A stretch of 64,000 bases of DNA from contig OX597837.1 of assembly GCA_951406725.2 (NCBI GenBank), positions 16,988,001 to 17,052,000 of the forward strand, given 5' to 3'. The stretch's first letter is position 1; each line of letters opens with the position of its first letter. The position numbers and the translations under genes were made by a program. The DNA is from Octopus vulgaris (Eukaryota). The notes below the pieces were generated by a model. That model did no database searches. It worked only from the letters and a program-made list of their open reading frames with translations, and was not told the DNA's origin. Below are positions 23,101 to 57,698 of this stretch, piece after piece.

Positions 23101-26100
23101 TTGTCAGCTTTTACTCTTGTTGTTGGTTCTTCAGCTTATAATGATTTTGATGGTTCTTCGGCTTTTACTGTTGTTGTTGCTTCTTCAGCTTTTTCTGTTA
23201 TTGATAGTTTTTCAGCTTTTACGGTTGTTGATGGTTCTTCAGGTTTTACTGTTGTTATTGGTTTTTCAGAATTTACTGTTCTTGTTTCTTCCAAAAGCCG
23301 AAGTACCCACAACAGTAAAAGCTGAAGAACCAACAACAACAGTCAAAGCTGAAGAACTAACAACAACAGTAAAATCTGAAGAACCAAGAACAACAGTTGG
23401 TTATTCAGCTTTTACTGTTGTTGTTGGTTATTCAGCTTTTACTGTTGTTATTGGTTATTAAAAGCTGAAAACAAACAACATCAGTAAAAGCTGAAGAACC
23501 AACGACAACAGTAAAAGCTGAATAACCAACAACAACAGTAAAAGCTGATGAACCAACAACAACACTAAAAGCTGAAGAACCAACAACAACAGTAAAATCT
23601 GAAGAACCAATAAAACAGTAAAACCTGAAGAACCATCAACAGTAAAATCTAAAGAACCAACAACAACAGTATTAGCTGAAAACCAAACGACAACAGTAAA
23701 AGCTGAAGAACCAACAAAAATAGTAAAAGCTGAAGAATTAACAACAATAGTAAAATAAAGTACTAACGACAAAAGTAAAAGCTGAAGAACCAACAGTAAA
23801 ATCTGATGTACCAACGGAAGCAGTAACAGCAGAATAACTGTTGTTGGTTCTTCGGCTTTTACTGTTGTTAGGGCTTCTGCTTTTACTGTGGTTGCTGGTT
23901 CTTCAGATTTTACTGTTGTTGTTGGTTATTCAGCTTTTATTGTTGTTGTTGGTTATTCAGCTTTTACTGTTGTTATTGGTTATTCAGATTTTACTGTTGT
24001 TGTTGGTTATTCAGCTTTTACTGTTGTTGTTGGTTATTCAGCTTTTACTGTTGTTGTTGGTTATTCAGCTTTTACTGTTGTTATTGGTTATTCAGATTTT
24101 ACTGTTGTTGTTGGTTATTCAGCTTTTACTGTTGTTGGTTATTCAGCTTTCACTGTTGTTGGTTATTCAGCTTTTACTGTTGTTATTGGTTCTTTAGCTT
24201 TTACTGTTGTTGTTGGTTATTCAGCTTTTATTGTTGTTGGTTTTTCAGCTTTTACTGTTGTTGTTGGTTATTCAGCTTTTACTGTTGTTATTGGTTATTC
24301 AGATTTTACAGCTGTCGTTGGTACTTCAGCTTTTACTGTTGTTAGTTCTTCAGGTTTTACTGTTGTTATTAGTTGTTCTGCTTTTACTGTTGTCGTTGGT
24401 TCTTCAGCATTTACTGTTGTTGGTACTTCAAATTTTGCTCTTGTTGTATGTGCTTTAGCTTTTACTGTTATTGTTGTTACTCTTATTGATAGTTTTTCAG
24501 GTTTTACTGTTATTGGTTTTTCAGATTTTACTGTTGTCGTTGCTTCTTCAGCTTTTAATGTTGTTGTTAGTTCTTCAACTTTTACTGTTGTTGAAGTTTC
24601 TTCAGGTTTTACTGTTTTTGTTGGTTTTCAGCTGTTACTCTTGTCGTTGGCTCTTCTACCTTGTACTGTTGTACTTGGTTTATCAGCTTTTACTGCTCTT
24701 GATGGTTCTTTTTTGTTGTTGTTCATTCTTCATTTACTTTTGTTGTTTGTTCTTCAGCTTTTACTCTTGTTGTTGGTTCTTCAGCTTTTACTGTTGTTGT
24801 TGGTTATTCAGATTTTTCTCTTGTTTTTACTTGTCAGCTTTTACTCTTGTTGGTTCTTCAGCTGTTAATGTTTTTGATGGTTCTTCAGCTTTTACTGTTG
24901 TTGTTGGTTCTTCAGCTTTTACTGTTGTCGTTGGTTCTTCAGCTTTTACTATTGTTGATTCTTCAGACTTTTCAGTTGTTGTTACTTCTTCAACTTTTAC
25001 TGTTGATGATGGTTTGTCAGCTTTTACTATTGTTGTTTGTTCTTCAGCTTTTACTGTTGTTGTTAATTCTTCAGCTTTTAATGTTTTATTGGTTCTTCAG
25101 ATTTTACTGTTGTTGTTGGTTCTTCAGCTTTTACTGTTGTTGATTCTTCAGCTTTTACTATTGTTGATTCTTCAGACTTTTCAGTCGTTTTTACTGCTTC
25201 AGCTTTTACTGTTGATGATGGTTTTTCAACTTTTACTGTTGTTATTGGTTCTTTAGCTTTTACTGTTGTTGTTGGTTCTTCAGCTTTTACAGTTGTTGTT
25301 GGGTCTTCAGGTTTTACTGTTGTTGTTGGTTCTTCAGATTTTACTGTTGTTATTGGTTCTTCAGATTTTACAGTTGTTGTTGGTTATTCAGCTTTTACTG
25401 TTGTTGGTACTTCAGATTTTTCTGTTGTTGTTTCTTTTGCTTTTTTACTCTTGTTGTTTGTTCTTCAGGTTTTACTGTTATTGTTGATTCTTCAGTTTTT
25501 AGTCTTGTCGTTGGATCTTCTACCTTGTACTGTTGTACTTGGTTCATCAATTTTTACTGTTGTTGTTGGTTCTTAAGATTTTACTGAAGAACCAACAACA
25601 GCAGTAAAATCTGAAAAACCAACAACAGTAAAAGCTGAAGAACCAATAATAACAGTAAAAGCTGAAAAACTATCAATAACAGTAAAACCGGAAGAACCAA
25701 CAACAACAGTAAAAGCTGAAGAACCATCAAAAACATTAAAAGCTGAAGAACCAACAGCAAAAGCTGAATAACCAACACAGTAAAATCTGCTGTTCTTGGT
25801 TCTTCAGCTTTTACTGTTGTTGTTGGTTCTTCAGCTTTTACTGTTGTTGTTGGTTCTTCAGCTTTTAATGTTTTTGATGGTTCTTCAGCTTTTACTGTTA
25901 TTGATAGTTTTTTAGCTTTTACTGTTGTTAATGGTTCTTCAGCTTTTAATGTTGTTGGTTTTTCAGATTTTACTGTTGTTATTAGTTGTTCAGCTTTTAC
26001 AGTTGTCGTTGGTTCTTCAGCATTTACTGTTGTTAGTACTTAAAATTTTGCTCTTGTTGTATGTGCTTCAGCTTTTACTGTTATTGTTGTTTCTTCAGTT

Positions 26101-29100
26101 TTTACTCTTGTCGTTGGATCTTCTACCTTGTACTGTTGTACTTGGTTCATCAGCTTTTACTGCTCTTAATGGTTCTTTAGCTGTTACTCTTATTGATAGT
26201 TTTTGAGGTTTTACTGTTATTGGTTTTTCAGATTTTACTGTTGTCGTTGCTTCTTCAGCTTTTACTATTGTTGATTCTTCAGACTTTTCAGTTGTTACTT
26301 CTTCAGCTTTTACTGTTGATGATGGTTTTTCAGCTTTTATTGTTGTTATTGGTTCTTTAGCTTTTACTGTTGTTGTTGGTTCTTCAGCTTTTACTGTTGT
26401 TGTTTGTTCTTCAGCTTTTAATTTTTTTTGGTTCTTCAGATTTTACTGTTGATATTGGTTTTTCAGATTTTACTGTTGTTGTTTGTTCTCAGCTTTTACT
26501 GTTGTCGTTGCTTCTTCAGCTTTTACTATTGTTGATTCTTTAGACTTTTCAGTCGTTTTTACTGCTTCAGCTTTTACTGTTGATGGTTTTTCAGCTTTTA
26601 CTGTTGTTATTGGTTCTTTAGCTTTTACTGTTGTTATTGGTTATTCAGATTTTACTCTTGTCGTTGGATCTTCTACCTTGTACTGTTGTACTTGGTTCAT
26701 CAGCTTTTACTGCTCTTGATGGTTCTTTAGGTGTTACTTTAGGTGTTTTTCAGGTTTTACTGTTGTTATTGGTTTTTCAGATTTTACTGTTGTTGTTGGT
26801 TCTTCAGCTTTTACTGTTGTCGTTGCTTCTTTAGCTTTTACTATTGTTGATTCTTCAGACTTTTCAGTCGTTGTTACTTCTTCAGCTTTTACTGTTGTTA
26901 TTGGTTCTTTAGCTTTTACTGTTGTTGTTGGTTCTTTAGCTTTTAATGTTTTTTTGGTTCCTCAGATTTTACTGTTGTTGTTTGTTATTTAACTTTTACT
27001 GTTGTTGATGGTTCTTCAGCTTTTACTGTTGTTGTTAGTTCTTCAGCTTTTACTGTTGTTGATGGTTCTTCAAGTTTTACTGTTGTTGAAGATTCTTCAG
27101 GTTCTACTGTTGTTGGTTATTCAGCTTTAACTGTTGTTGATGGTTCTTCAGGTTTTACTGTTGTTATTGGTTCTTCAGGTTTTACTGTTGTTGTTGGTTC
27201 TTCAGGTTTTACTGTTGTTATTGGTTCTTCAGCTTTTACTGTTGTTATTGGTTCTTCAGCTTTTACTGTTGTTGTTGGTTGTTCAGCTTTTACTGTTGTT
27301 GTTGGTTCTTCAGCTTTTACTGTTGTTGTTGGTTCTTCATCTTTTACTGTTGTTGGTTATTCAGATTTTTCTCTTGTTTTTAGTTGTCAGCTTTTACTCT
27401 TGTTGTTGGTTCTTCAGCTTATAATGATTTTGATGGTTCTTCGGCTTTTACTGTTGTTGTTGCTTCTTCAGCTTTTTCTGTTATTGATAGTTTTTCAGCT
27501 TTTACGGTTGTTGATGGTTCTTCAGGTTTTACTGTTGTTATTGGTTTTTCAGAATTTACTGTTCTTGTTTCTTCCAAAAGCCGAAGTACCCACAACAGTA
27601 AAAGCTGAAGAACCAACAACAACAGTCAAAGCTGAAGAACTAACAACAACAGTAAAATCTGAAGAACCAAGAACAACAGTTGGTTATTCAGCTTTTACTG
27701 TTGTTGTTGGTTATTCAGCTTTTACTGTTGTTATTGGTTATTAAAAGCTGAAAACAAACAACATCAGTAAAAGCTGAAGAACCAACGACAACAGTAAAAG
27801 CTGAATAACCAACAACAACAGTAAAAGCTGATGAACCAACAACAACACTAAAAGCTGAAGAACCAACAACAACAGTAAAATCTGAAGAACCAATAAAACA
27901 GTAAAAGCTGAAGAACCAACAAGAACAGTAAAACCTGAAGAACCATCAACAGTAAAATCTAAAGAACCAACAACAACAGTATTAGCTGAAAACCAAACGA
28001 CAACAGTAAAAGCTGAAGAACCAACAAAAATAGTAAAAGCTGAAGAATTAACAACAATAGTAAAATAAAGTACTAACGACAAAAGTAAAAGCTGAAGAAC
28101 CAACAGTAAAATCTGATGTACCAACGGAAGCAGTAACAGCAGAATAACTGTTGTTGGTTCTTCGGCTTTTACTGTTGTTAGGGCTTCTGCTTTTACTGTG
28201 GTTGCTGGTTCTTCAGATTTTACTGTTGTTATTGGTTATTCAGCTTTTATTGTTGTTGTTGGTTATTCAGCTTTTACTGTTGTTATTGGTTATTCAGATT
28301 TTACTGTTGTTGTTGGTTATTCAGCTTTTACTGTTGTTGTTGGTTATTCAGCTTTTACTGTTGTTGTTGGTTATTCAGCTTTTACTGTTGTTATTGGTTA
28401 TTCAGATTTTACTGTTGTTGTTGGTTATTCAGCTTTTACTGTTGTTGGTTATTCAGCTTTCACTGTTGTTGGTTATTCAGCTTTTACTGTTGTTATTGGT
28501 TCTTTAGCTTTTACTGTTGTTGTTGGTTATTCAGCTTTTATTGTTGTTGGTTTTTCAGCTTTTACTGTTGTTGTTGGTTATTCAGCTTTTACTGTTGTTA
28601 TTGGTTATTCAGATTTTACAGCTGTCGTTGGTACTTCAGCTTTTACTGTTGTTAGTTCTTCAGGTTTTACTGTTGTTATTAGTTGTTCTGCTTTTACTGT
28701 TGTCGTTGGTTCTTCAGCATTTACTGTTGTTGGTACTTCAAATTTTGCTCTTGTTGTATGTGCTTTAGCTTTTACTGTTATTGTTGTTACTCTTATTGAT
28801 AGTTTTTCAGGTTTTACTGTTATTGGTTTTTCAGATTTTACTGTTGTCGTTGCTTCTTCAGCTTTTAATGTTGTTGTTAGTTCTTCAACTTTTACTGTTG
28901 TTGAAGTTTCTTCAGGTTTTACTGTTTTTGTTGGTTTTCAGCTGTTACTCTTGTCGTTGGCTCTTCTACCTTGTACTGTTGTACTTGGTTTATCAGCTTT
29001 TACTGCTCTTGATGGTTCTTTTTTGTTGTTGTTGATTCTTCATTTACTTTTGTTGTTGGTTCTTCAGCTTTTACTCTTGCTGTTGGTTCTTCAGCTTTTA

Positions 29101-32100
29101 CTGTTGAAGAGCCAACAACAACAGTAAAAGCTGAAGAACCAGCAACAACATTAAAAGATGAATAACAAACAACAACAGTAAAATCTGGAGAAAGTACTAA
29201 CGACAAAAGTAAAAGCTGAAGAACCAACAGTAAAATCTGAAGTACCAACGACAGAATAACTGTTGTTTGTTCTTCGGCTTTTACTGTTGTTAGTTCTGCT
29301 TTTACTGTGGTTGCTGTTTCTTCAGATTTTACTGTTGTTGATGTTTCTTCAGGTTTTACTGTTGTTGTGGGTTATTCAGCTTTTACTGTTGTTGGTTCTT
29401 CAGGTTTTACTGTTGTTATTAGTTGTTCTGCTTTTACAGTTGTCGTTGGTTCTTTAGCATTTACTGTTGTTAGTACTTAAAATTTTGCTCTTGTTGTATG
29501 TGCTTCAGCTTTTACTGTTATTGTTGTTTCTTCAGTTTTTACTCTTGTCGTTGGATCTTCTACCTTGTACTGTTGTACTTGGTTCATCAGCTTTTACTGC
29601 TCTTAATGGTTCTTTAGCTGTTACTCTTATTGATAGTTTTTGAGGTTTTACTGTTATTGGTTTTTCAGATTTTACTGTTGTCGTTGCTTCTTCAGCTTTT
29701 ACTATTGTTGATTCTTCAGTCTTTTCAGTCGTTGTTACTTCTTCAGCTTTTACTGTTGATGATGGTTTTTCAGCTTTTACTGTTGTTATTGGTTCTTTAG
29801 CTTTTACTGTTGTTGTTAGTTCTTCAGCTTTTACTGTTGTTGTTAGTTCTTCAGCTTTTAATGTTTTTTTGGTTCCTCAGATTTTACTGTTGATATTGGT
29901 TTTTCAGATTTTACTGTTGTTGTTTGTTCTCAGCTTTTACTGTTGTCGTTGCTTCTTCAGCTTTTACTATTGTTGATTCTTTAGACTTTTCAGTCGTTTT
30001 TACTGCTTCAGCTTTTACTGTTGATGGTTTTTCAGCTTTTACTGTTGTTATTGGTTCTTTAGCTTTTACTGTTGTTATTGGTTATTCAGATTTTACTCTT
30101 GTCGTTGGATCTTCTACCTTGTACTGTTGTACTTGGTTCATCAGCTTTTACTGCTCTTGATGGTTCTTTAGGTGTTACTTTAGGTGTTTTTCAGGTTTTA
30201 CTGTTGTTATTGGTTTTTCAGATTTTACTGTTGTTGTTGGTTCTTCAGCTTTTACTGTTGTCGTTGCTTCTTTAGCTTTTACTATTGTTGATTCTTCAGA
30301 CTTTTCAGTCGTTGTTACTTCTTCAGCTTTTACTGTTGTTGTTGGTTCTTCAGCTTTTAATGTTTTTTTGGTTCTTCAGATTTTACTGTTGTTGTTTGTT
30401 ATTTAGCTTTTACTGTTGTTGACGGTTCTTCAGCTTTTACTGTTGTTGTTAGTTCTTCAGCTTTTACTGTTGTTGATGGTTCTTCAAGTTTTACTGTTGT
30501 TGAAGATTCTTCAGGTTCTACTGTTGTTGTTGGTTATTCAGCTTTAACTGTTGTTGATGGTTCTTCAGGTTTTACTGTTGTTATTGGTTCTTCAGATTTC
30601 ACAGTTGTTGTTGGTTATTCAGCTTTCACTGTTGTTATTGGTTATTAAAAGCTGAAAAACAAACAACAGTAAAAGCTGAAGCCAATAACAACAGTGAAAG
30701 CTGTGGAACCAACAACAGTAAAAGCTGAAGAAGCAAGAACAACAGTAAAAGCTGAATAACCGGCAACATTAAAAGCTGAATAACAAACAACATTAAAATC
30801 TGAAGAACCATCAACAACAGTAAAAGCTGAAGAACCAACAACAGTAAAAGCTGAAGAACCAACAGAAGTAAGAGCTGAAGAACCAACAACAGTAAAAGCT
30901 GAATAACCAACAACAACAGTAAAAGCTGCATAACCAACAACAAAAGTAAAACCTGAACAAGCATCAACAAAGTAAAAGCTGAAGATCCAACAACAACAGT
31001 AAAATCAGAAGAACCAATAAAACAGTAAAAGCTGAAGAACCAACAACAACAGTAAAAGCTGAAGAACCAACAACAACAGTAAATGCTGAAAAACAAACAA
31101 CAACAGTATAAGCTGAAGAACCAACAACAACAGTAAAAGCTGAAGAACCAACAACAACAGTAAAAGCTGAAGAACCAACAACAGTAACACCTAAAGAGCT
31201 GTAAAATCTGATGAACCAAGTACAACAGTACAAGGTAGAAGAGCCAACGACAAGAGTAAAAACTGAAGAAACAACAATAACAGTAAAAGCTGAAGCACAA
31301 ACAACAACAGTAAAAAACAAAAGAAACAACAACAGCAAAAGCTGAAGAACCAACAACGAGAGTAAAAGCTGAGGAAACATCAACAACAGTAAAAGCTGAA
31401 GAACCAACAACAACAGTAAAATCTGAAGAACCAATGAAACAGTAAAAGCTGAAGTACCAACAACAACAGTAAAAGCTGAAAAACAAGCAACAGTAAAAGC
31501 TGAAGAGCCAACAACAACAGTAAAAGCTGAAGAACCAACAACAACAGTAAAAGCTGAAAAACAAACAACAGTAAAAGCTGAAGAGCCAACAACAGTAAAA
31601 GCTGAAGAACCAGCAACAACATTAAAAGATGAATAACCAACAACATCAGTAAAATCTGAAGAACCATCAACAACAGTAAAAGCTGAATAACCAACAACAA
31701 CAGTAAAAGCTGAATAACCAACAACAACAGTAAAAGCTGAAGAACCAACAACAACAGTAAAAGCTTTTACTGCTTTTACTGTTGTCGTTGGTTCTTCAGC
31801 ATTTACTGTTGTTAGTACTTCAAATTTTGCTCTTGTTGTATGTGCTTCAGCTTTTACTGTTATTGTTGTTTCTTCAGTTTTTACTCTTGTCGTTGGATCT
31901 TCTACCTTGAACTGTTGTACTTGGTTCATCAGCTTTTACTGCTCTTGATGGTTCTTTAGGTGTTACTCTTATTGATAGTTTTTGAGGTAAATGTTATTGG
32001 TTTTTCAGATTTTACTGTTGTCGTTGCTTCTTCAGCTTTTACTATTGTTGATTCTTCAGTCTTTTCAGTCGTTGTTACTTCTTCAGCTTTTACTGTTGAT

Positions 32101-35100
32101 GGTTTTTCAGTTTTACTGTTGTTATTGGTTCTTTAGCTTTTACTGTTGTTGTTGATTCTTCAGCTTTTAATGTTGTTGTTAGTTCTTCAGCTTTTACTGT
32201 TGTTGATGGTTCTTCAGGTTTTACTGTTATTGTTGGTTCTTCAGCGTTTACTGTTGTCGTTGGTTCTTCAGCTTTTACTATTGTTGATTCTTCAGACTTT
32301 TAAGTTGTTGTTACTTCTTCAGCTTTTACTGTTGATGATGGTTTTTCAGCTTTTACTGTTGTTGTTGGTTCTTCAGCTTTTACTGTTGTTGTTTGTTCTT
32401 CAGCTTTTAATGTTTTATTGGTTCTTCAGATTTTACTGTTGTTGTTTGTTATTTAGCTTTTACTGTTGTTAATGGTTCTTCAGATTTTACAGTTGTTGGT
32501 TATTCAGCTTTCACTGATGTTATTGGTTATTAAAAGCTGAAAACAAACAACAACAGTAAAAGCTGAAGAACCAACAACAACAGCAAATGCTAAAGAACGA
32601 AAGAAGTAAAAGCCGAAGAACCAACAACAGTAAAAGCTGAAGAACCAACGACAACAGTAAAAGCAGAACAACCAATAACAACAGTAAAAGCTGAAGAACC
32701 AACAACAACAGTAAAATCTGAAGAACCAATAAAACAGTAAAAGCTGAAGAACCAACAACAACAGTAAAACCTGAAGAACCATCAACAGTAAAATCTAAAG
32801 AACCAACAACAACAGTAAAAGCTGAAAACCAAACGACAACAGTAAAAGCTGAAGAACCAACAAAAACAGTAAAAGCTGAAGAACCAACAACAACAGTAAA
32901 ATGAAGTACCAACAACAAAAGTAAAAGCTGAAGAACCAACTACAGTAAAATCTGAAGTACCAACGATAGCAGTAAAAGCAGAATAACTGTTGTTGGTTCT
33001 TCGGCGTTTACTGTTGTTAGTTCTTCTGCTATTACTATGGTTGCTGGTTCTTCAGATTTTACTGTTGTTCTTGGTTATTCAGCTTTTACTTTTGTTGTTG
33101 GTTATTTAGCTTTTACTGTTGTTATTTGTTATTCAGCTTTTACCGTTGTCGTTGGTTCTTCAGCTTTTACTGTTGTTATTGGTTATTCTGCTTTTACTGT
33201 TGTTGTTGGTTATTCAGCTTTTACTGTTGTTGTTGGTTATTCAGCTTTTACTGTTGTTATTGGTTATTCAGCTTTTACAGTTGTCGTTGGTTCTTCAGCT
33301 TTTACTGTTGTTGTTGGTTATTCATCTTTTACTGTTGTTATTGGTTATTCAGCTTTTACTTTTGTTGTTGGTTATTAAAAGCTGAAAACAAACAACAACA
33401 GTAAAAGCTGAAGAACCAACGACAACAGTAAAAGCTTTTACTGCTTTTACTGTTGTTATTGGTTATTCAGCTTTTACAGTTGTCGTTGGTTCTTCAGCTT
33501 TTACTGTTGTTGTTGGTTATTCAGCTTTTACTGTTGTTCTTGGTTATTCAGCTTTTACTTTTGTTGTTGGTTATTCATCTTTTACTGTTGTTATTGGTTA
33601 TTCAGCTTTTACAGTTGTCGTTGGTTCTTCAGCTTTTACTGTTGTTGTTGGTTATTCAGCTTTTACTGTTGTTCTTGGTTATTCAGCTTTTACTTTTGTT
33701 GTTGGTTATTCATCTTTTACTGTTGTTATTGGTTATTCAGCTTTTACAGTTGTCGTTGGTTCTTCAGCTTTTACTGTTGTTGTTGGTTATTCAGCTTTTA
33801 CTGTTGTTCTTGGTTATTCAGCTTTTACTTTTGTTGTTGGTTATTCATCTTTTACTGTTGTTATTGGTTATTCAGCTTTTACTTTTGTTGTTGGTTATTC
33901 ATCTTTTACTGTTGTTATTGGTTATTCAGCTTTTACAGTTGTCGTTGGTTCTTCAGCTTTTACTGTTGTTCTTGGTTATTCAGCTTTTACTTTTGTTGTT
34001 GGTTATTCAGCTTTTACTGTTGTTATTGGTTATTCAGATTTTACAGCTGTCGTTGGTACTTCAGCTTTTACTGTTGTTAGTTCTTCAGGTTTTACTGTTG
34101 TTATTAGTTGTTCTGCTTTTACTGTTGTCGTTGGTTCTTCAGCATTTACTGTTGTTAGTACTTCAAATTTTGCTCTTGTTGTATGTGCTTCAGCTTTTAC
34201 TGTTATTGTTGTTTCTTCAGTTTTTACTCTTGTCGTTGGATCTTCTACCTTGAACTGTTGTACTTGGTTCATCAGCTTTTACTGCTCTTGATGGTTCTTT
34301 AGGTGTTACTCTTATTGATAGTTTTTGAGGTTTTACTGTTATTGGTTTTTCAGATTTTACTGTTGTCGTTGCTTCTTCAGCTTTTACTATTGTTGATTCT
34401 TCAGTCTTTTCAGTCGTTGTTACTTCTTCAGCTTTTACTGTTGATGGTTTTTCAGTTTTACTGTTGTTATTGGTTCTTTAGCTTTTACTGTTGTTGTTGA
34501 TTCTTCAGCTTTTAATGTTGTTGTTAGTTCTTCAGCTTTTACTGTTGTTGATGTTTCTTCAGGTTTTACTGTTATTGTTGGTTCTTTAGCTTTTACTGTT
34601 GTCGTTGGTTCTTCAGCTTTTACTATTGTTGATTCTTCAGACTTTTCAGTTGTTACTTCTTCAGCTTTTACTGTTGATGATGGTTTTTCAGCTTTTACTG
34701 TTGTTGTTAATTCTTCAGCTTTGAATGTTTTATTGGTTCTTCAGATTTTACTGTTGTTTCTTGTTATTTAGCTTTTACTGTTGTTATTGGTTCTTCAGAT
34801 TTTACAGTTGTTGGTTATTCAGCTTTCACTGATGTTATTGGTTATTAAAAGCTGAAAACAAACAACAACAGTAAAAGCTGAAGAACCAACAACAACAGCA
34901 AATGCTAAAGAACGAAAGAAGTAAAAGCCGAAGAACCAACAACAGTAAAAGCTGAAGAACCAACGACAACAGTAAAAGCAGAACAACCAATAACAACAGT
35001 AAAAGCTGAAGAACCAACAACAACAGTAAAAGCTGAAGAACCAACAACAACAGTAAAATCTGAAGAACCAATAAAACAGTAAAAGCTGAAGAACCAACCA

Positions 35101-38100
35101 CAACAGTAAAACCTGAAGAACCATCAACAGTAAAATCTAAAGAACCAACAACAACAGTAATAGCTGAAAACCAAACGACAACAGTAAAAGCTGAAAACCA
35201 ACAAAAATAGTAAAAGCTGAAGAACCAACAACAACAGTAAAATGAAGTACCAACGACAAAAGTAAAAGCTGAAGAACGAACTACAGTAAAATCTGAAGTA
35301 CCAACGATAGCAGTAAAAGCAGAATAACTGTTGTTGGTTCTTCGGCGTTTACTGTTGTTAGTTCTTCTGCTATTACTATGGTTGCTGGTTCTTCAGATTT
35401 TACTGTTGTTCTTGGTTATTCAGCTTTTACTTTTGTTGTTGGTTATTCATCTTTTACTGTTGTTATTGGTTATTCAGCTTTTACAGTTGTCGTTGGTTCT
35501 TCAGCTTTTACTGTTGTTATTGGTTATTCTGCTTTTACTGTTGTCGTTGGTAGTTTAGATTTTACTGTTATTGGTTCTTCAGCTTTTACTGTTGTAATAA
35601 CAACATCTTTTACTGTTGTTCTGCTTGTACTGTTGTCGTTGTTTCTTCAGCTTTTACTGTTGTTGGTACTTCAGATTTTGCTGTTGTTTCTTTTTCTTTT
35701 TTACTCTTGTTGTATGCGCTTTAGCTTTTACTGTTGTTGTTTCTTCAGTTTTTACTCTTGTTGGATCTTCTACCTTGTACTGTTGTACTTGGTTCATCAG
35801 CTTTTACTGCTCTTGATGGTTCTTTAGGTGTTACTCTTATTGATAGTTTTTCAGGTTACTCTTTAGGTGTTACTCTTATTGATTGGTTTTTCAGATTTTA
35901 CTGTTGTCGTTGCTTCTTCAGCTTTTACTATTGTTGATTCTTCAGACTTTTCAGTTGTTACTTCTTCAGCTTTTACTGTTGATGATGGTTTTTCAGCTTT
36001 TACTGTTGTTGTTGGTTCTTCAGCTTTTACTGTTGTTGTTTGTTCTTCAGCTTTTAATTTTTTTTGGTTCTTCAGCTTTTACTGTTGTTATTGGTTTTTC
36101 AGATTTTACTGTTGTTGTTTGTTCTCAGCTTTTACTGTTGTCGTTGCTTCTTCAGCTTTTACTATTGTTGATTCTTTAGACTTTTCAGTCGTTTTTACTG
36201 CTTCAGCTTTTACTGTTGATGATGGTTTTTCAGCTTTTACTGTTGTTATTGGTTCTTTAGCTTTTACTGTTGTTGTTGGTTTTTCAGCTTTTACTGTTGT
36301 TGTTGGTTATTCAGCTTTTACTGTTGTTATTGGTTATTCAGACTTTACTTCTTGTCGTTGGATCTTCTACCTTGTACTGTTGTACTTGGTTCATCAGCTT
36401 TTACTGCTCTTGATGGTTCTTTAGGTGTTACTCTTATTGATAGTTTTTCAGGTTTTAGTTTTTCAGATTTTACTGTTGTCGTTGCTTCTTCAGCTTTTAA
36501 TGTTGTTGTTAGTTCTTCAACTTTTACTGTTGTTGATGGTTCTTCAAGTTTTACTGTTGTTGAAGTTTCTTCAGGTTTTACTGTTTTTGTTGGTTTTCAG
36601 CTGTTACTCTTGTCGTTGGCTCTTCTACCTTGTACTGTTGTACTTGGTTTATCAGCTTTTACTGCTCTTGATGGTTCTTTTTTGTTGTTGTTGATTCTTC
36701 ATCTTTTACTTTTGTTGTTGGTTCTTCAGCTTTTACTCTTGTTGTTGGTTCTTCAGCTTTTACTGTTGTTGTTGGTTATTCAGATTTTTCTCTTGTTTTT
36801 TTACTTGTCAGCTTTTATTTTGTTGTTGGTTCTTCAGCTGTTAATGTTTTTGATGGTTCTTCAGCTTTTACTGTTATTGTTGGTTCTTCAGCTTTTTACT
36901 GTTGTCGTTGGTTCTTCAGCTTTTACTATTGTTGATTCTTCAGACTTTTCAGTTGTTGTTACTTCTTCAACTTTTACTGTTGATGATGGTTTGTCAGCTT
37001 TTACTATTGTTGTTTGTTCTTCAGCTTTTACTGTTGTTGTTAATTCTTCAGCTTTTACTGTTGTTATTGGTTATTCAGATTTTACTCTTGTCGTTGGATC
37101 TTCTACCTTGTACTGTTGTATTTGGTTCATCAGCTTTTTCTGCTCTTGATGGTTCTTTAGGTGTTACTCTTATTGATAGTTTTTCAGGTTTTACTGTTGT
37201 TATTGGTTTTTCAGATTTTACTGTTGTTGTTATTCTTCAGCTTTTACTGTTGTCGTTGCTTCTTTAGTTTTTACTATTGTTGATTCTTTAGACTTTTCAG
37301 TCGTTGTTACTTCTTCAGCTTTTACTGTTGTTATTGGTTCTTTAGCTTTTACTGTTGTTGTTGGTTCTTTAGCTTTTAATTTTTTTTGGTTCTTCAGATT
37401 TTACTCTTGTTGTTTGTTATTTAGCTTTTACTGTTGTTGACGGTTCTTCAGCTTTTACTGTTGTTGTTAGTTCTTCAGCTTTTACTGTTGTTGATGGTTC
37501 TTCAAGTTTTACTGTTGTTGAAGATTCTTCAGGTTTTACTGTTGTTGTTGGTTATTCAGCTTTAACTGTTGTTGATGGTTCTTCAGGTTTTACTGTTGTT
37601 ATTGGTTCTTCAGATTTCACAGTTGTTGTTGGTTATTCAGCTTTCACTGTTGTTATTGGTTATTAAAAGCTGAAAAACAAACAACAGTAAAAGCTGAAGA
37701 GCCAATAACAACAGTGAAAGCTGTGGAACCAACAACAGTAAAAGCTGAAGAACCAGCAACAACAGTAAAAGCAGAAGAACCAGCTACAACAGCAAAAGCC
37801 AATAACAACAGTGAAAGCTGTGGAACCAACAACAGTAAAAGCTGAAGAAGCAAGAACAGTAAAAGCTGAATAACCGGCAACATTAAAAGCTGAATAACAA
37901 ACAACAGTAAAATCTGAAGAACCATCAACAACATTAAAAGCTGAAGAACCAACAACAGTAAAAGCTGAATAACCAACAACAACAGTAAAAGCTGAATAAC
38001 CAACAACAAAAGTAAAACCTGAACAAGCATCAACAAAGTAAAAGCTGAAGATCCAACAACAAAAGTAAAAGCTGAAGAACCATCAACAGCATTAAAAGCC

Positions 38101-41100
38101 GAATAACAAACAACAGTAAAAATCTGAAGAACCAAACAGTAAAAGCTGAAGAACCAACAACAACAGTAAAAGCGGAAGAACCAACAACAACAGTGAAAGC
38201 TGAAGAACCAACAACAACAGTAAAAGCTGAAGAACCAACAACAACAGTAAAAGCTGAAAAACAAACAACAACAGTAAAATCTGAAGAACCAGCAACAATA
38301 GTGAAAGCTGAAGAAGCAACAACAGTAAAAGCTGAAGAACCGGCAACAACAGTAAAAGCTGAAAACCAAACGACAACAGTAAAAGCAGAAGAACCATCAA
38401 CAACAGTAAAACCTGAAGAACCATCAAGAGCTGTAAAATCTGATGAACCAAGTACAACAGTACAAGGTAGAAGAGCCAACGACAAGAGTAAAAACTGAAG
38501 AAACAACAATAACAGTAAAAGCTGAAGCACAAACAACAACAGTAAAAAACAAAAGAAACAACAACAGCAAAAGCTGAAGAACCAACAACGAGAGTAAAAG
38601 CTGAGGAAACATCAACAACAGTAAAAGCTGAAGAACCAACAACAACAGTAAAATCTGAAGAACCAATGAAACAGTAAAAGCTGAAGTACCAACAACAACA
38701 GTAAAAGCTGAAGAACCAACAACAACAGTAAAAGCTGAAAAACAAACAACAGTAAAAGCTGAAGAGCCAACAACAACAGTAAAAACTGAAAAACCAACAA
38801 CAACAGTAAAAGCTGAAGAACCAGCAACAACATTAAAAGATGAATAACCAACAACAACAGTAAAATCTGAAGAACCATCAACAACAGTAAAAGCTGAATA
38901 ACCAACAACAACAGTAAAAGCTGAATAACCAACAACAACAGTAAAAGCTGAAGAACCAACAACAGTAAAAGCTGAAGAAGCAAGAACAACAGTAAAAGCT
39001 GAATAACCGGCAACATTAAAAGCTGAATAACAAACAACAGTAAAATCTGAAGAACCATCAACAACAGTAAAAGCTGAAGAACCAATAACAGTAAAACCTG
39101 AAGAAACATCAACAACAGTAAAAGCTGAAGGACCAATAACAAAAGTAAAAGCTGAAGAACCATCAACAGCATTAAAAGCCGAATAACAAAAAACAGCAGT
39201 AAAATCTGAAGAACCAATAAAACAGTAAAAGCTGAAAAACAAACAACAATAGTAAAAGCTGAAAACCAAACGACAACAGTAAAAGCCGAAGAACCAACAA
39301 AAATAGTAAAAGCTGGAGAACCAACAACAACAGTAAAATGAAGTACCAACGACAAAAGTAAAAGCTGAAGAACAAACAACAGTAAAATCTGAAGTACCAA
39401 CAACAGTAAAAGCTGAAGAACCAACGACAACAGTAAATGCTGAAGAACCAACGACAACAGTAAAAGCAGAATAACTGTTGTTAGTTCTTCTGCTTTTACT
39501 ATGGTTGCTGGTTCTTCAGATTTTACTGTTATTGATATTTCTTCAGATTTTACTGTTGTTCTTGGTTATTCAGCTTTTACTGTTGTTGTTGGTTATTCAG
39601 CTTTTAATGTTGTTATTGGTTATTAAAAGCTGAAGAACCAACGACAACAGTAAAAGCTGAATAACCAACAACAACAGTAAAAGCTGAAGAACCAACAACA
39701 ACAGTAAAATCTGAAGAACCAATAAAACAGTAAAAGCTGAAGAACCAACAACAACAGTAAAACCTGAAGAACCATCAACAGTAAAATCTAAAGAACCAAC
39801 AACAACAGTAATAGCTGAAAACCAAACGACAACAGTAAAAGCTGAAGAACCAACAAAAATAGGAAAAGCTGAAGAACCAACAACAACAGTAAAATGAAGT
39901 ACCAACGACAAAAGTAAAAGCTGAAGAACCAACTACAGTAAAATCTGAAGTACCAACGACAGCAGTAAAAGCAGAATAACTGTTGTTGGTTCTTCGGCTT
40001 TTACTGTTGTTAGTTCTTCTGCTTTTACTATGGTTGCTGGTTCTTCAGATTTTACTGTTGTTCTTTGTTATTCAGCTTTTACTTTTGTTGTTGGTTATTC
40101 AGCTTTTACTGTTGTTATTGGTTATTCAGCTTTTACAGTTGTCGTTGGTTCTTCAGCTTTTACTGTTGTTATTGGTTATTCTGCTTTTACTGTTGTCGTT
40201 GGTATTTCAGATTTTACTGTTGTTGGTTCTTCAGCTTTTACTGTTGTAATAACAACATCTTTTACTGTTGTTCTGCTTGTACTGTTGTTGTTTCTTCAGC
40301 TTTTACTGTTGTTGGTACTTCAGATTTTGCTGTTGTTTCTTTTGCTTTTTTACTCTTGTTGTATGCGCTTTAGTTTTTACTGTTGTCGTTGGATCTTCTA
40401 CCTTGTACTGTTGTACTTGGTTCATCAGCTTTTACTGCTCTTGATGGTTCTTTAGGTGTTACTCTTATTGATAGTTTTTCAGGTTTTACTATTGTTGTTG
40501 GTTATTCAGCTTTTACTGTTGTTGTTTCTTCAGTTTTTACTCTTGTCGTTGGATCTTCTACCTTGTACTGTTGTACTTGGTTCATCAGCTTTTTCTGCTC
40601 TTGATGGTTCTTTAGGTGTTACTGTTATTGATAGTTTTTCAGGTTTTACTGTTGTTATTGGTTTTTCAGATTTTACTGTTGTTGTTGGTTCTTCAGCTTT
40701 TACTGTTGTCGTTGCTTCTTCAGCTTTTACTATTGTTGATTCTTCAGACTTTTCAGTCGTTGTTACTTCTTCAGCTTTTAATGTTGTTATTGGTTCTTTA
40801 GCTTTTACTGTTGTTGTTGGTTATTCAGCTTTCACTGTTGTTATTGGTTATTAAAAGCTGAAAAACAAACAACAACAGTAAAAGCTGAAGAGCCAATAAC
40901 AACAGTGAAAGCTGTAGAACCAACAACAACAGTAAAAGTTGAAGAACCAGCAACAACAGTAAAAGCAGAAGAACCAGCAACAACTGCAAAAGCTGAAGAA
41001 CCAACAACAGTAAAAGCTGAAGAAGCAAGAACAACAGTAAAAGCTGAATTACCGGCAACATTAAAAGCTGAATAACAAACAGTAAAATCTGAAGAACCAT

Positions 41101-43005
41101 CAACAACAGTAAAAGCTGAAGAACCAACAACAGTAAAAGCTGAAGAACCAACAGAAGTAAGAGCTGAAGAACCAACAACAGTAAAAGCTGAATAACCAAC
41201 AACAACAGTAAAAGCTGAATAACCAACAACAAAAGTAAAACCTGAACAAACATCAACAAAGTGAAAGCTGAAGATCCAACAACAAAAGTAAAAGCTGAAG
41301 AACCATCAACAGCATTAAAAGCCGACTAACAAACAACAACAGTAAAATCTGAAGAACCAATAAAACAGTGAAAGCTGAAGAACCAACAACAACAGTAAAA
41401 GCTGAAAAACAAACAACAACAGTAAAAGCTGAAGAGCCAACAACAACAGTAAAAGCTGAAGAACCAACAACAACAGTAAAAGCCGAAGAACCAACATCAG
41501 TAAAAGCTGAAGAACCAACAACAACAGTAAAATCTGAATAACCAATAAAACAGTAAAAGCTGAAGAACCAACAACAACAGTAAAACCTGAAGAACCAGCA
41601 ACAATAGTAAAAGCTGATGAAGCAACAACAGTAAAAGCTGAAGAACCGGCAACAACAGTAAAAGCTGAAAACCAAACGACAACAGTAAAAGCAGAAGACC
41701 CATCAACAACAGTAAAACCTGAAGAACCAACAACAGTAAAATTTGAAGAACCAAGAACAAAAGTAAAAGCTGAAGAACCAACAACAGTAACAGCTAAAGA
41801 GCTGTAAAATCTGATGAACCAAGTACAACAGTACAAGGTAGAAGAGCCAACGAAAGAGTAAAAACTGAAGAAACAACAATAACAGTAAAAGCTGAAGCAC
41901 AAACAACAACAGTAAAACACAAAAGAAACAACAACAGCAAAAGCTGAAGAGCCAACAACAACAGTAAAAGCTGAAGAACCAACAACAACAGTAAAAGCCG
42001 AAGAACCAACATCAGTAAAAGCTGAAGAACCAACAACAACAGTAAAATCTGAATAACCAATAAAACAGTAAAAGCTGAATAACCGGCAACAACATTAAAA
42101 GATGAATAACAAACAACAACAGTAAAAGCCGAAGAACCAACATCAGTAAAAGCAGAAGACCCATCAACAACAGTAAAATCTGAAGAACCAATAAAACAGT
42201 AAAAGCTGAAGAACCAACAACAACAGTAAAAGCTGAATAACCAACAACAACAGTAAAAGCCGAAGAACCAACAACAGTAAAAGCTGAAGAACCAACAACA
42301 ACAGTAAAATCTGAAGAACCAATAAAACAGTAAAAGCTGAAGAACCAACAACAGTAAAAGCTGAATAACAAACAACAACAGTAAAAGCTGAAGAACCAGC
42401 AACAACATTAAAAGATGAATAACAAACAACAACAGTAAAATCTGAAGAACCAATAAAACAGTAAAAGCTGAAGAACCAACAACATTAAAAGATGAATAAC
42501 AAACAACAACAGTAAAAGCTGAATAACCAACAACAACAGTAAAAGCTGAATAACCAACAACAACAGTAAAAGCTGAATAACCAACAACAACAGTAAAAGC
42601 TGAATAACCAACAACAACAGTAAAAGCTGAATAACCAACAACAACAGTAAAAGCTGAAGAACCAACAACAGTAAAAGCTGAAGAAGCAAGAACAACAGTA
42701 AAAGCTGAATAACCGGCAACATTAAAAGCTGAATAACAAACAACAGTAATCTCTGAAGAACCATCAACAACAGTAAAAGCTGAAGAACCAACAACAGTAA
42801 AACCTGAAGAAACATCAACAACAGTAAAAGCTGAAGAACCAACAACAACAGTAAAAGCTGAAGAACCATCAACAGCATTAAAAGCCGAATAACAAACAAC
42901 AACAGTAAAATCTGAAGAACCAATAAAACAGTAAAAGCTGAAGAACCAACAACAGTAAAGTCTGAAGAACCATCAACAATAGTAACATCTGAAGAACCAA
43001 CAACA
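11113..43005. repeat. ~32-kb array of 24/27-bp repeats (KAEEPTT[T]V-reading) with alternating orientation blocks and higher-order duplications
   Basis: Unit AAAGCTGAAGAACCAACA(ACA)ACAGTA. I count 17 reverse-oriented blocks between 16281 and 40852. GAA>TAA variants and frameshifts are frequent. Confidence 0.97.
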
Positions 43006-43059
43006 AGCAGAAATGACCGTATCTTCCCTGTAACACACATAAATCACTGGTTTTATCAC

Positions 43060-47673: not shown

Positions 47674-47876
47674 TTTTCGTCCTAAAAACTTTGTATGGAG
47701 TGAATGGTTACCTCTATGGAAATATATACACACACGTTATACATACATGTGTGCATAGATGAATATATAAATACATTTAAATATCTATATACACTTTTAA
47801 GTGATCTTTCTGCTTCTTAGAGATAACTTTAGATATTATTTTCGTCCTAAAAAACTTTGTGCGGAGTGAATGGTTA

Positions 47877-50800
47877 AAAGCTGAATAACCAACAACAAAA
47901 GTAAAACCTGAACAAGCATCAACAAAGTAAAAGCTGAAGATCCAACAACAAAAGTAAAAGCTGAAGAACCATCAACAGCATTAAAAGCCGACTAACAAAC
48001 AACAACAGTAAAATCAGAAGAACCAATAAAACAATAAAAGCTGAAGAACCAACAACAACAGTAAAAGCGGAAGAACCAACAACAACAGTGAAAGCTGAAG
48101 AACCAACAACAACAGTAAAAGCTGAAGAACCAACAACAACAGTAAAAGCTGAAAAACAAACAACAACAGTAAAATCCGAAGAACCAACAACAGTAAAAGC
48201 TGAAGAACCAACAACAGTAAAAGCTGAAGAACCGACATCAACAGCAAAAGCTGAAAACCAAACGACAACAGTAAAAGCAGAAGAACCATCAACAACAGTA
48301 AAACCTGAAGAACCATCAAGAGCTGTAAAATCTGATGAACCAAGTACAACAGTACAAGGTAGAAGAGCCAACGACAAGAGTAAAAACTGAAGAAACAACA
48401 ATAACAGTAAAAGCTGAAGCACAAACAACAACAGTAAAAAACAAGGTTGTTCTTCAGTGATTCTTCAGAGTTGTTGTTAATTTCTTCAGCTTTTACTGTC
48501 AACAACAGTAAAAGCTGAAAAACAAACAACAGTAAAAGCTGAAGAGCCAACAACAACAGTAAAACTGAAAAACCAACAACAACAGTAAAAGCTGAAGAAC
48601 CAGCAACAACATTAAAAGATGAATAACCAACAACAACAGTAAAATCTGAAGAACCATCAACAACAGTAAAAGCTGAATAACCAACAACAACAGTAAAAGC
48701 TGAATAACCAACAACAACAGTAAAAGCTGAAGAACCAACAACAGTAAAAGCTGAAGAAGCAAGAACAACAGAATAACCGGCAACATTAAAAGCTGAATAA
48801 CAACAACAGTAAAATCTGAAGAACCATCAACAACAGTAAAAGCTGAAGAACCAATAACAGCTGAAGAACCTGAAGAAACATACCAACAACAGTAAAAGCT
48901 GAAGGACCAACGACAACAGTAAAAGCTGAATAACCAACAACAACAGTCAAAGCTGAAGAACTAACAACAACAGTAAAATCTGAAGAACCAACAAAACAGT
49001 AAAAGCTGAAAACAAACGACAACAGTAAAAGCTGAAGAACCAAACGAAAAATAGTAAAAGCTGAAGAACCAACAAAAATAGTAAAAGCTGAAGAACCAAC
49101 AACAACAGTAAAATGAAGTACCAACGACAAAAGTAAAAGCTGAAGAACCAACAGTAAAATCTGAAGTACCAACGACAGCAGTAAACGCAGAATAACTGTT
49201 GTTGGTTCTTCGGCTTTACAGTTCTTCTTTTACTGTGTTGCTGGTCTTCAGATTTTACTGTTGTTGATGTTCTTCAGATTTTACTGTTGTTCTTGGTTAA
49301 GCTTTTACTGTTGTTGTTGTTATTCAGCTTTTACTGTTGTTATTGGTTATTCAGTTTTACTCTTGTCGTTGGATCTTCTACCTTGTACTGTTGTACTTGG
49401 TTCATCAGCTTTTACTGCTCTTGATGGTTCTTTAGGTGTTACTGTTATTGATAGTTTTTCAGGTTTTACTGTTGTTATTGGTTTTTCAGATTTTACTGTT
49501 GTTGTTGTTCTTCAGCTTTACTGTATGTTACTTCTTCAGCTTTTACTATTGTTGATTCTTCAGACTTTTCAGTCGTTGTTACTTCTTCAGCTTTTACTGT
49601 TGTTATTGGTTCTTTAGCTTTTACTGTTGTTGTTGGCTTTAGCTTTCACTGTTGTTATTGGTTTGTAAAAGCTGAAAAACAAACAACAACAGTAAAAGCT
49701 GAAGAGCCAATAACAACAGTGAAAGCTGTAGAACCAACAACAACAGTAAAAGCTGAAGAACCAGCAACAACAGTAAAAGCAGAAGAACCAGCAACAACAG
49801 CAAAAGCTGATGAACCAACAACAGTAAAAGCTGAAGAAGCAAGAACAACAGTAAAAGCTGAAAACCAAACGACAACATTAAAAGCTGAATAACAAACAAC
49901 AGTAAAATCTGAAGAACCATCAACAACAGTAAAAGCTGAAGAACCAACAACAGTTAAAGCTGAAGAACCAGCAGAAGTAAGAGCTGAAGAACCAACAACA
50001 ACAGTAAAAGCTGAATAACCAACAACAAAAGTTAAACCTGAACAAACATCAACAAAGTAAAAGCTGAAGAACCAACAACAAAAGTAAAAGCTGAAGAACC
50101 ATCAACAGCATTAAAAGCCGAATACAAACAACAACAGTAAAATCTGAAGAACCAATAAAACAGTAAAAGCTGAAGAACCAACAACAACAGTAAAAGCTGA
50201 AGAACCAACAACAACAGTAAAAGCTAAAAAACAAACAACAACAGTAAAAGCTGAAGAGCCAACAACAACAGTAAAAGCTGAAGAACCAACAACAACAGTA
50301 AAAGCCGAAGAACCAACAACAGTAAAAGCTGAAGAACCAGCAACAACAGTAAAATCTGAAGAACCAATAAAACAGTAAAAGCTGAAGAACCAACAACAGT
50401 AAAACCTGAAGAACCAACAACAACAGTAAAATCTGAAGAACCAGCAACAATAGTAAAAGCTGAAGAAGCAACAACAGTAAAACTGTTGTTACCGGCAACA
50501 ACAGTAAAAGCTGAAAACCAAACGACAACAGTAAAAGCAGAAGAACCATCAACAACAGTAAAACCTGAAGAACCAACAACAGTAAAATTTGAAGAACCAA
50601 GAACAAAAGTAAAAGCTGAAGAACCAACAACAGTAACACCTAAAGAACCATCAAGAGCTGTAAAATCTGATGAACCAAGTACAACAGTACAAGGTAGAAG
50701 AGCCAACGACAAGAGTAAAAACTGAAGAAACGACAATAACAGGAAAAGCTGAAGCACAAACAACAACAGTAAAAAACAAAAGAAACAACAACAGCAAAAT

Positions 50801-52654
50801 CTGAAGAACCAACAACGAGAGTAAAGGCTGATGAACCAACAAAAACAGTAAAAGCTGAAGAACCAACAACAACAGTAAAAGCTGAAGAACCAACAACAAC
50901 AGTAAAGGCTGATGAACCAACAAAAACAGTAAAAGCTGAAGAACCAACAACAACAGTAAAAGCTGAAGAACCAACAACAACAGTAAAGGCTGATGAACCA
51001 ACAATAACAGTAAAAGCTGAAGCACAAACAAGAACAGTAAAAAACAAAAGAAACAACAACAGCAAAAGCTGAAGAACCAACAACGAGAGTAAAGGCTGAT
51101 GAACCAACAAAAACAGTAAAAGCTGAAGAAGCATCAACAACAGTAAAATCTGAAGAACCAACAACAACAGTAAAAGCTGAAGAACCAACAACAACAGTAA
51201 AATCTGAAGAACCAACAACAACAGTAAAGGCTGATGAACCAACAAAAACAGTAAAAGCTGAAGAACCAACAACAACAGTAAAATCTGAAGAACCAACAAC
51301 AACAGTAAAGGCTGATGAACCAACAAAAACAGTAAAAGCTGAAGAACCAACAACAACAGTAAAAGCTGAAGAACCAACAACAACAGTAAAATCTGAAGAA
51401 CCAACAACAACAGTAAAAGCTGAAAAACAAACAACAGTAAAAGCTGAAGAGCCAACAACAACAGTAAAAGCTGAAAAACCAACAGCAACAGTAAAGGCTG
51501 ATGAACCAACAAAAACAGTAAAAGCTGAAGAAGCATCAACAACAGTAAAATCTGAAGAAACATCAACAACAGTAAAAGCTGAAGAACCAACAACAACAGT
51601 AAAATCTTAAGAGCCAACAAAAACAGTAAAAGCTGAGGAACCAACAACAACAGTAAAAGCTGAAGAACCAACAACAACAGTAAAATCTGAAGAACCAACA
51701 ACAACAGTAAAAGCTGAAGAACCAACAACAACAGTAAAAGCTGAAGAACCAACAACAACAGTAAAAGCTGAAGAACCAACAACAACAGTAAAATCTGAAG
51801 AACCAACAACAACAGTAAAAGCTGAAAAACAAACAACAGTAAAAGCTGAAGAACCAACAACAACAGTAAAATCTGAAGAACCAACAACAACAGTAAAGGC
51901 TGATGAACCAACAAAAACAGTAAAAGCTGAAGAACCAACAACAACAGTAAAATCTGAAGAACCAACAACAACAGTAAAGGCTGATGAACCAACAAAAACA
52001 GTGAAAGCTGAAGAACCAACAACAACAGTAAAAGCTGAAGAACCAACAACAACAGTAAAATCTGAAGAACCAACAACAACAGTAAAAGCTGAAAAACAAA
52101 CAACAGTAAAAGCTGAAGAGCCAACAACAACAGTAGAAGCTGAAGAATCAACAAGAACAGTAAAAGCTGAAGAACCAGCAACAACCTTAAAATATGAATA
52201 ACAAACAACAACAGTAAAATCTGAAGAACCATCAACAACAGTAAAACCTGAAGAACCATTAACAACAGTTAAAGCTGAAGAACCAACAACAACAGTAAAA
52301 CCTGAAGAAACCAACAACAGTAAAAGCTGAAGAAGCAAGAACAACAGTAAAAGCTGAATAACCGGCAACATTAAAAGCTGAATAACAAACAACAGTAAAA
52401 TCTGAAGAACCATCAACAATAGTAAAAGCTGAAGAACCAACAACAGTAAAACCTGAAGAAACATCAACAACAGTAAAAGCTGAAGAACCAACAACAAAAG
52501 TAAAAGCTGAAGTACCATCAACAGCATTAAAAGCCGAATAACAAACAACAACAGTAAAATCTGAAGAACCAATAAAACAGTAAAAGCTGAAGAACCAACA
52601 ACAGTAATGTCTGAAGAACCATGAACAATAGTAACATCTGAAGAACCAACAACA
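47877..52654. repeat. Second array of the same 24/27-bp repeat
   Basis: Same unit; reverse blocks at ~48445-48498, ~49196-49665 and ~50482-50490. Confidence 0.95.
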
Positions 52655-53594
52655 AGCAGAAATGACCGTATCGCATTGTATCTTCCACTGTAACACACAT
52701 AAATCACTGGTTTTATCACATTCTATTGCTGTATCAATGAGATATCTCTTAGTTTCAAACTAACTGAATGTTTGAATGAAACTGACTGATTCTAAGGTCG
52801 TATCGTACAGCATCCATCACTGCATCAATGACAGCCTCAGCTTCTATCTGTGGTTCTTACAAATTGTATCAGTGACTCTATCAAATTCATGAAGTAACTG
52901 CATCAATGATTGTATCAAACTGTATCAAATGCATTATCAAACTGACTGAATGTCCATATCAAACGGTATCAAACAAGGTGTGTATAGTTGTATTAATGGT
53001 TGTATCAGCATTACTGTCACGTGTCTCAAACACATGGCAGTAATACCTGCATCAAGAGTATTCAATGCTGTATCAAACAGTTTGATGTATCAAACAGTAA
53101 CGATGCCTCTGTTAAATAGGATCAATGCCTGTATCGAACAATAACAAAGCCTCTAAGAACTTGTATCAAAAAATCGATGACATTATGGAACTATCAATCT
53201 ATACAGCTGGTTATGTAAATCTCAGTATTCCTGACTGATTCACGCTGTATCATGTGTCCTATCAAATTGATTTTAATGGCTAGAGGAAATCGATTCAATA
53301 GTTGAATCAACCTGATGGAAAGACTTTATCAAACTATGTAAATGATTGTAACATCAGGTTGTTTCAAAATTCTATCACTGACAGTATGAAACTGTACCAA
53401 TGATTATTAATTACACGATCGAAATGGTTCAATGGCTGTCGAAAGCTGTGCTAAACTGTTTCAAACCTGCATTAATTACTGAGGCAAACTGATTCCATGG
53501 ATGTGTATTTGTGTGTCAGTGTGCTTCCAGACATTTCTTTACGTATGTATTTATATATCGCGTCCAGATTGTAAAGAACTACTCACTTACGTAT

Positions 53595-57342: not shown

Positions 57343-57698
57343 TTTTCGTCCTAAAAAACTTTGTATGGAGTGAATGGTTACCTCTATGGAAATATATACA
57401 CACACGTTATACATACATGTGTGCATAGATGAATATATAAATACATTTAAATATCTATATACACTTTTGGGCGATCTTTCTGCTTCTTAGAGATAACTTT
57501 AGATGTTATTTTCGTCCTAAAAACTTTGTGCGGAGTGAATGGTTACCTCTATGGAAATATATACACACACATTATACATACATGTTTGTATAGATGAATA
57601 TATAAATACATTTAAATATCTATATACACTTTTGGGCGATCTTTGTGCTTCTTAGAGATAACTTTAGATGTTATATTCGTCCTAAATAACTTTGTATG
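57343..57698 (+). repeat. ~166-bp tandem repeat, about 2.2 copies
   Basis: TTCGTCCTAAAAACTTTGT.. recurs at ~57345, ~57511 and ~57676; about 1.2 copies at 47674-47876. Confidence 0.85.

Follow-up and report, generated by a model that had tools for sequence, protein, structure and literature searches.

Recurrent orientation junctions in a 27-nt Octopus vulgaris satellite array as probable reciprocal ends of one inversion

The window analysed here is a stretch of 64,000 nt from Octopus vulgaris (GenBank assembly GCA_951406725.2, contig OX597837.1, forward-strand positions 16,988,001 to 17,052,000), and all coordinates below count from its first letter. This repeat-rich DNA holds a satellite with a monomer of 27 nt (24-nt variants are common), which forms a main array at 11113..43006 with 34 orientation switches and a second array at 47875..52655 with four; neither array has a single strand, and the second lies within a direct duplication of about 9.7 kb. 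Within the 64-kb window the satellite is flanked by remnants of mobile elements. These include gag (624-1181, plus strand) and integrase (2782-3627, plus strand) remnants of an LTR retroelement, a Pif1 helicase 2B-domain fragment (46932-47519, minus strand, with a copy near 56564-57115) that we take to be probably part of a Helitron-like element, and a LINE at 59609-63247 on the minus strand, whose endonuclease and reverse transcriptase occupy 59609-62129. The reverse transcriptase matches a sequence from Argonauta hians at 61% identity, ranked second among the 120 matches listed and the only one of these with a species name, and the upstream frame of the LINE has a weak match to a CCCH zinc finger. 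A pair of direct repeats of 545 nt (5203-5747 and 7315-7855) is 98.3% identical.

Alignment of the satellite in both orientations yielded 1459 monomer pieces and 38 orientation switches; monomer positions are numbered 0 to 26. The monomers are about 84% similar to one another, and the main 32-kb array consists of 35 blocks of 58 to 5130 nt each. The uninverted block at 11150..16279 (plus strand), which carries a higher-order repeat three times, was used as the internal reference, that is, as a stand-in for the ancestral order and not as a true outgroup. A strongly diverged run of marker monomers marks this higher-order repeat at 12444, 14121 and 15792 and recurs at 24 other sites, with 17 occurrences on the minus strand and 10 on the plus strand. 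The monomer can be read as a 9-residue peptide rich in Thr, Glu and Pro, but a variant that puts a stop in that frame occurs in 250 of 1360 monomers and this coding reading was rejected. Pfam gave no family matches for the peptide, and a protein search with it, weak for low-complexity queries, gave none at E ≤ 1e-10 among 8000 candidates of 107-343 residues. A literature search in which subscription journals were sparsely covered listed no title on this satellite, on inverted satellite arrays in cephalopods or on reciprocal inversion ends within a satellite, and nothing that combines quasi-palindromes, template switching and satellite DNA.

Two junction types cover 26 of the 38 switches, and both consist of truncated monomers without foreign DNA. 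Breakpoint A is common to 14 of the 19 minus-to-plus switches and breakpoint B to 12 of the 19 plus-to-minus switches; given this reuse, each junction type has a single origin and was copied many times. The copies examined most closely bound an inverted block at 39981..40852 (minus strand), between junction B at 39980/39981 and junction A at 40849-40852. The left side of B (39965..39980, plus strand) corresponds to positions 0-15 of a monomer that we call M, its last 2 nt being microhomology, and the left side of A (40836..40852, minus strand) corresponds to positions 10-26 of the same monomer. Microhomology amounts to 2 nt at B and to 1-2 nt at A. We looked for special conservation of the junctions and found none: identity among their copies is 91-94% across 30 nt and 82-90% across 100 nt and does not exceed that of an internal marker, which was chosen by an exact 12-mer and is thereby biased upward. 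Predicted hairpin energies at the switches are -30 to -48 kcal/mol, compared to -2.5 and -6.8 for head-to-tail controls, and they are not taken as evidence of mechanism because any switch between like monomers folds.

The other 12 switches resemble deletions or patches of secondary origin. The plus-to-minus switches at 31762 and 33433 are secondary, perfect palindromes without a spacer, centred on the 4-nt palindromic core of the monomer, and the join at 16280 resembles them. Short plus-oriented pieces with non-standard junctions lie within minus blocks at 25584-25789 and at 23292-23395 (copied at 27575-27678), and are either insertions or secondary inversions. At 48445-48499, an inverted mosaic piece of 55 nt stands in place of 167 nt of the homologous stretch 38553-38719. 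It was tried as a recent test case, and the search for its source gave no clear match (best score 63/110); it is either a recent event or an assembly error.

The junction ends spread by direct amplification. Comparison of the window to itself with megablast gave six long matches, all of them direct, and no inverted match of at least 250 nt at 93% identity or more in the 64 kb. Duplications of 4.3 and 9.7 kb, at 98.9% and 99.6% identity, each carry copies of A and B. All 29 blocks that contain at least 10 monomers find their best partner in a block of like orientation, with no preference for the neighbour beyond a switch. When segments of five monomers were matched to the other blocks, the top match ran in the same direction for 721 of 761 plus segments and for 506 of 519 minus ones. 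Plus and minus blocks are separate lineages. Unequal exchange or slippage between direct repeats is an established process and accounts for these same-orientation matches between blocks. The larger duplication (about 37.9-47.9 kb compared to 47.9-57.5 kb) shows 99.6% identity and 17 one-base indels in its non-array part; either it arose very recently or it is a haplotype that the assembly left uncollapsed. Its join at 47875 sits in a 165-nt repeat that continues at 57342-57696.

An earlier note on this DNA had described both junction types as interrupted palindromes with spacers of 40-45 nt. The arm pairs are there as it claimed: 40826..40847 (minus strand) is the exact reverse complement of 40893..40914 (plus strand), 45 nt away, at junction A, and 39964..39976 (plus strand) is that of 40017..40029 (minus strand), 40 nt away, at junction B. 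The same A mirroring, which it had reported at four other places, is exact at 30.6 and 37.7 kb (spacers of 40 and 42 nt) and falls short by one mismatch at 18.0 kb, in the right arm, and at 49.7 kb, in the left arm. The mirrors were not confirmed as a property of the junction types, however, as the A mirror occurs in 5 of 14 A copies and three of the 12 B copies have the exact pair, their spacers measuring 31, 16 and 40 nt. The spacers themselves are ordinary 27-nt monomers with the strand switch at one edge, and not unique loops. Arm length carries little meaning because the monomers are so alike; by length alone, a perfect 22-nt match was found in 38%, and a 13-nt match in 77%, of 515 random plus-strand windows. 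Furthermore, each junction type is one event that was copied, so the recurring mirrors are not independent evidence.

When the sharing of rare variants across the junctions was compared to that of random monomers, as the earlier note had proposed, A came out above chance and B at chance. The B left arm carries a single variant base, with an array frequency of 5.3%. In the rarity-weighted test no B copy fell below p=0.096, and with the arm anchored at the switch the offset given in the earlier note yielded p=0.81-1.0 in all 12 copies. The third base from the switch is a mismatch and the arm ends after 13 nt. Both B flanks align to a stretch of the uninverted block (11938..12112, plus strand) in which the two arms are present as direct repeats, at 11938 and 12100; the inversion would only have turned two existing variants face to face. 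The right arm holds an inherited variant and is not a copy of the left one. The B mirror is thus at chance level.

The A mirror is non-random (about p=0.014 over offsets). Its mirrored variants, at 40833 and 40843 in the left arm and at 40897 and 40907 in the right, have array frequencies of 11.3% and 2.1%. In its five copies the rarity-weighted test gave p=0.003-0.15, and with the arm anchored at the switch p was 0.0012-0.006 per offset, 0.0012 being the floor of a null built on 868 monomers, and 0.014-0.07 over 12 offsets. The match does not begin at the switch: in the focal copy two of the five bases between switch and arm are mismatched, and the right arm is bounded by mismatches at 40892 and 40915 and ends after 22 nt. 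Nine internal homologues of the A right flank, of which 41395..41475 (plus strand) is one, lie away from the A breakpoint; they share the flanking variant and carry neither of the mirrored ones (0/9). One of the two differences between switch and arm is common to all nine. At 16433, a copy of A has the flanking variant and lacks the patch. The left-flank variants are found in 13 and 10 of the 14 A copies, compared to five and five of 14 for those of the right flank. The left arm, as a nearby reverse-complement template, accounts for both changes, which lie 10 nt from each other and are absent from all nine internal homologues.

From this pattern, the A mirror is probably a later template-switch patch of 11-22 nt, for which the left arm (40826..40847) is the probable donor and the right arm (40893..40914) the probable recipient. 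The phylogeny of junction copies that the earlier note had called for resolved two near-duplicate sister pairs, 30644/37662 and 40850/49664, so that the five mirrored copies amount to three lineages, and did not unite them. The tree of all 14 rows has low resolution, with two changes and the five mirrored copies outside any one clade, and a second tree of 13 rows, without 33374 (whose plus block is only 58 nt), was likewise poorly resolved. Since there is no single clade of mirrored copies, the direction of change, gain or loss, is read from the internal homologues, which are possibly themselves derived, and the A mirror may have been lost repeatedly. Of the mirroring that the earlier note had taken as the signature of fold-back or template-switch replication, the A mirror in five copies thus probably is the product of a template switch, and the B mirror is not distinguishable from chance.

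The origin of the two junction types is better seen from monomer M. It is intact at 11939..11965 (plus strand) and at 13483 (plus) and 33171, 35512 and 40164 (minus), and appears to have been cut at B and resumed at A. Positions 0-15 are exact on the left of B in 7 of 12 copies, and positions 10-26, read in the direction of the monomer, on the left of A in 8 of 14. The two halves overlap by 4 nt, and the rejoined monomer is found intact five times, twice in the uninverted block; as a control, 25 of 878 intact monomers would have passed the same comparison. At the other break, phase agreement this close has p=0.065, and the joint chance of the M fit and the phase is about 0.002 in a test that was devised post hoc. 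When the 2-nt microhomology of B is assigned to this break, the break in M carries a net duplication of 4 nt and the other break carries none. Within the uninverted block, the left side of B ranks 1, 2 and 3 of 198 positions at the three copies of the higher-order repeat, and the right side of B aligns over 210 nt to the same higher-order-repeat segment. The match of the left side of A to this block fades past M, where its ranks at the best-matching copy are 9-28 among about 200, and anchoring the right side of A there was uninformative, gap-rich monomers scoring highest. The second break agrees in phase only: the rejoined sequence has at best 2 mismatches in 51 nt, with no exact or variant-level match, and none of the nine internal homologues of the right side of A follows the monomer that ends the right side of B. 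The shortest block from B to A is 146 nt, and in longer ones there is another intact M as well as a marker monomer of the higher-order repeat; the first inverted block would have measured about 0.2-1.9 kb. A variant monomer with a frequency of about 1% stands ahead of M-like monomers of either orientation, to the left of 19478 and 39476 and upstream of 24361, 28671, 29411 and 34096, which hints at more exchange between orientations.

We regard it as reasonably probable that A and B are the reciprocal ends of one inversion, followed by tandem copying and a later patch at A. In the first step, which we infer with moderate support, one inversion within a head-to-tail 27-nt satellite would have produced both junctions. 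One of its breaks would have cut M, so that the first half ends at B and the second starts at A with a net duplication of 4 nt, and the other would have fallen at a monomer boundary. The joins carry 1-2 nt of microhomology. Either a break with slightly staggered ends, repaired by end joining, or a template switch out and back (3-1-2-4) could have made them, and judged by sequence alone the two would fit equally well. Units of B, inverted block and A then multiplied by direct tandem duplication, and blocks grew or shrank in place, a step that the block comparisons show; this is why one breakpoint is seen 14 times and the other 12 times. Every junction would by then be a quasi-palindrome, and in one A lineage the right flank would have been overwritten from the left by a short template switch or hairpin-templated conversion, leaving the patch of 11-22 nt that the earlier note had seen as a mirror. 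The B mirror would be two variant bases, already direct repeats, that the inversion made to face each other. The coordinates, the reuse of the breakpoints, the chance level of the B mirror and the direct amplification are demonstrated here, whereas the reciprocity of A and B, the direction of the A patch and the enzymology are what we infer from these comparisons.

The claim that the interrupted palindromes record the founding event is supported in one part, as one such event probably made both junction types, and in the other it took a real structure for the wrong trace: arms, flanks and block pairing disagree with a founding fold-back. If both junctions were fold-backs with loops of 40-45 nt, of the ODIRA or tandem-inverted-duplication type, and their mirrors had later eroded, the A mirror would be expected to exceed chance, as it does in 5 of 14 copies, and the two-variant pattern (n=13) does always lie within about 160 nt of an A junction; the A tree is also compatible with repeated loss. 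However, an arm made in this way should match from the switch outward, and mismatches intervene at both junctions; for B, where the mirror is at chance and both arms pre-exist as direct repeats, the proposal is largely refuted. Inverted matches of at least 250 nt at 93% or more are missing, adjacent blocks of opposite orientation are not preferred partners, although later homogenisation could hide an old signal, and the resumption at A of the monomer cut at B goes unexplained. We consider this origin very unlikely. A loop of about 194 nt at B alone, with the strand folded onto the intact M of the inverted block and copied outward and A arising separately, deserves somewhat more attention but is still improbable. 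The stretch 40164..40217 (minus strand), which holds M and the monomer upstream of it, is a better mirror of the B left flank at 194 nt from the switch; three of the 12 copies of B have a left side that matches the monomers lying 8-9 places deep in the inverted block, with p=0.0012 for a single offset and 0.014 over all 12 offsets, the 2-nt microhomology lies where priming would need it, and a rare upstream variant occurs both to the left of B and in inverted blocks. Against this, the mirror lasts for 2-3 monomers and the left side of B continues to match the uninverted block for four, the inverted copy at 35512 shares five of five variants with the uninverted block and not with the left side of B, and the fit of A and B at M would again be left without a cause.

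A similarly low probability attaches to independent origins of A and B, as unrelated joins or deletions, with the M fit and the A mirror as post hoc coincidences. In its favour, each junction type goes back to one event, the p-values (0.002; 0.014-0.07) are modest and come from tests chosen after the fact, no variant supports the second break, and looser two-variant patterns exist away from the junctions (21447, 41368). Two separate coincidences would nevertheless be needed, and all four intact monomers that have the half found on the left of B carry exactly the second half found on the left of A. Least probable of all is that the inversions are artefacts of sequencing or assembly, from fold-back reads or amplification chimeras. 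Such an origin could draw on the 9.7-kb duplicate, which may be an uncollapsed haplotype given its 99.6% identity outside the array and its 17 one-base indels, and on the many small deletions in the copy at 49.2-49.7 kb, but the two breakpoints are found again and again with flanks that have diverged (82-90% identity across 100 nt), long near-identical inverted arms are absent, and plus and minus blocks form separate lineages. The reciprocal inversion with a later patch at A is the reading that we carry forward.

A wider view, which we put forward tentatively and hold to be possible rather than probable, is that this non-Tribolium, octopod satellite acquired its dense alternation from one inversion with both ends kept, and that its junctions act as hairpin-templated bridges for variants between the orientations, the A patch being an example caught in place. 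If the A patch is the product of a template switch, inverted junctions would let satellites homogenise across orientations. Recurrent conserved inversion sites in satellites have been read, in the T. madens report, as a sign of structural function (PMC13081366); a neutral route, with one inversion and then direct tandem duplication of both ends, can give the same picture.

Among known systems, ODIRA and tandem inverted duplications have junctions that keep a pre-existing short interrupted inverted repeat (Brewer et al., PMC4689423, who count repeats of 7 bp with less than 70 bp between them), whereas the microhomology here is 1-2 nt; adjacent segments there are mirror copies, and neighbours here are not. 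The fold-back features we tested (pre-existing repeat, arms from the switch, mirror-copy neighbours) fail here; ODIRA in addition calls for an origin of replication within the amplified segment. Inversions by staggered breaks, as in Ranz et al. (PMC1885836), share two reciprocal breakpoints with an inverted duplication at one only, but their duplications measure 46 bp to 1.9 kb compared to 4 nt here, where the event would lie within a satellite and the two ends went on to be amplified jointly. In the four-point template-switch model of Loytynoja and Goldman (PMC5453318), the A patch would fit 3-2-1-4, in which a near-perfect inverted repeat is made more perfect, and the founding event 3-1-2-4, which leaves a tiny inverted repeat on either side of an inverted block. 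That model applies to events spanning tens of bases where the sequence is unique and the reference known, in contrast to a founding block of probably about 0.2-1.9 kb and a reference that is internal only.

The closest known architecture, alike in layout, appears to be that of the macro-dyad satellites of Tribolium, TfSat01 of T. freemani (bioRxiv 10.1101/2024.12.02.626372) and TmSat1/2 of T. madens (PMC13081366), documented only in that genus according to the latter. The Tribolium monomers are 110-700 nt compared to 27 nt here, an array has mostly two subarrays compared to 35 blocks in one 32-kb array, and inversion sites are 95-99.9% conserved compared to 91-94% over 30 nt; macro-dyads are also megabase-sized, (peri)centromeric and present on many chromosomes, and the octopus array, which is denser and comes from another phylum, is seen within 64 kb. 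Both have few recurring types of orientation-change site, formed by two truncated monomers with no foreign sequence and able to fold into hairpins. The comparison of reciprocal ends used here can be carried over directly to the site types of Tribolium as well as to other satellites.
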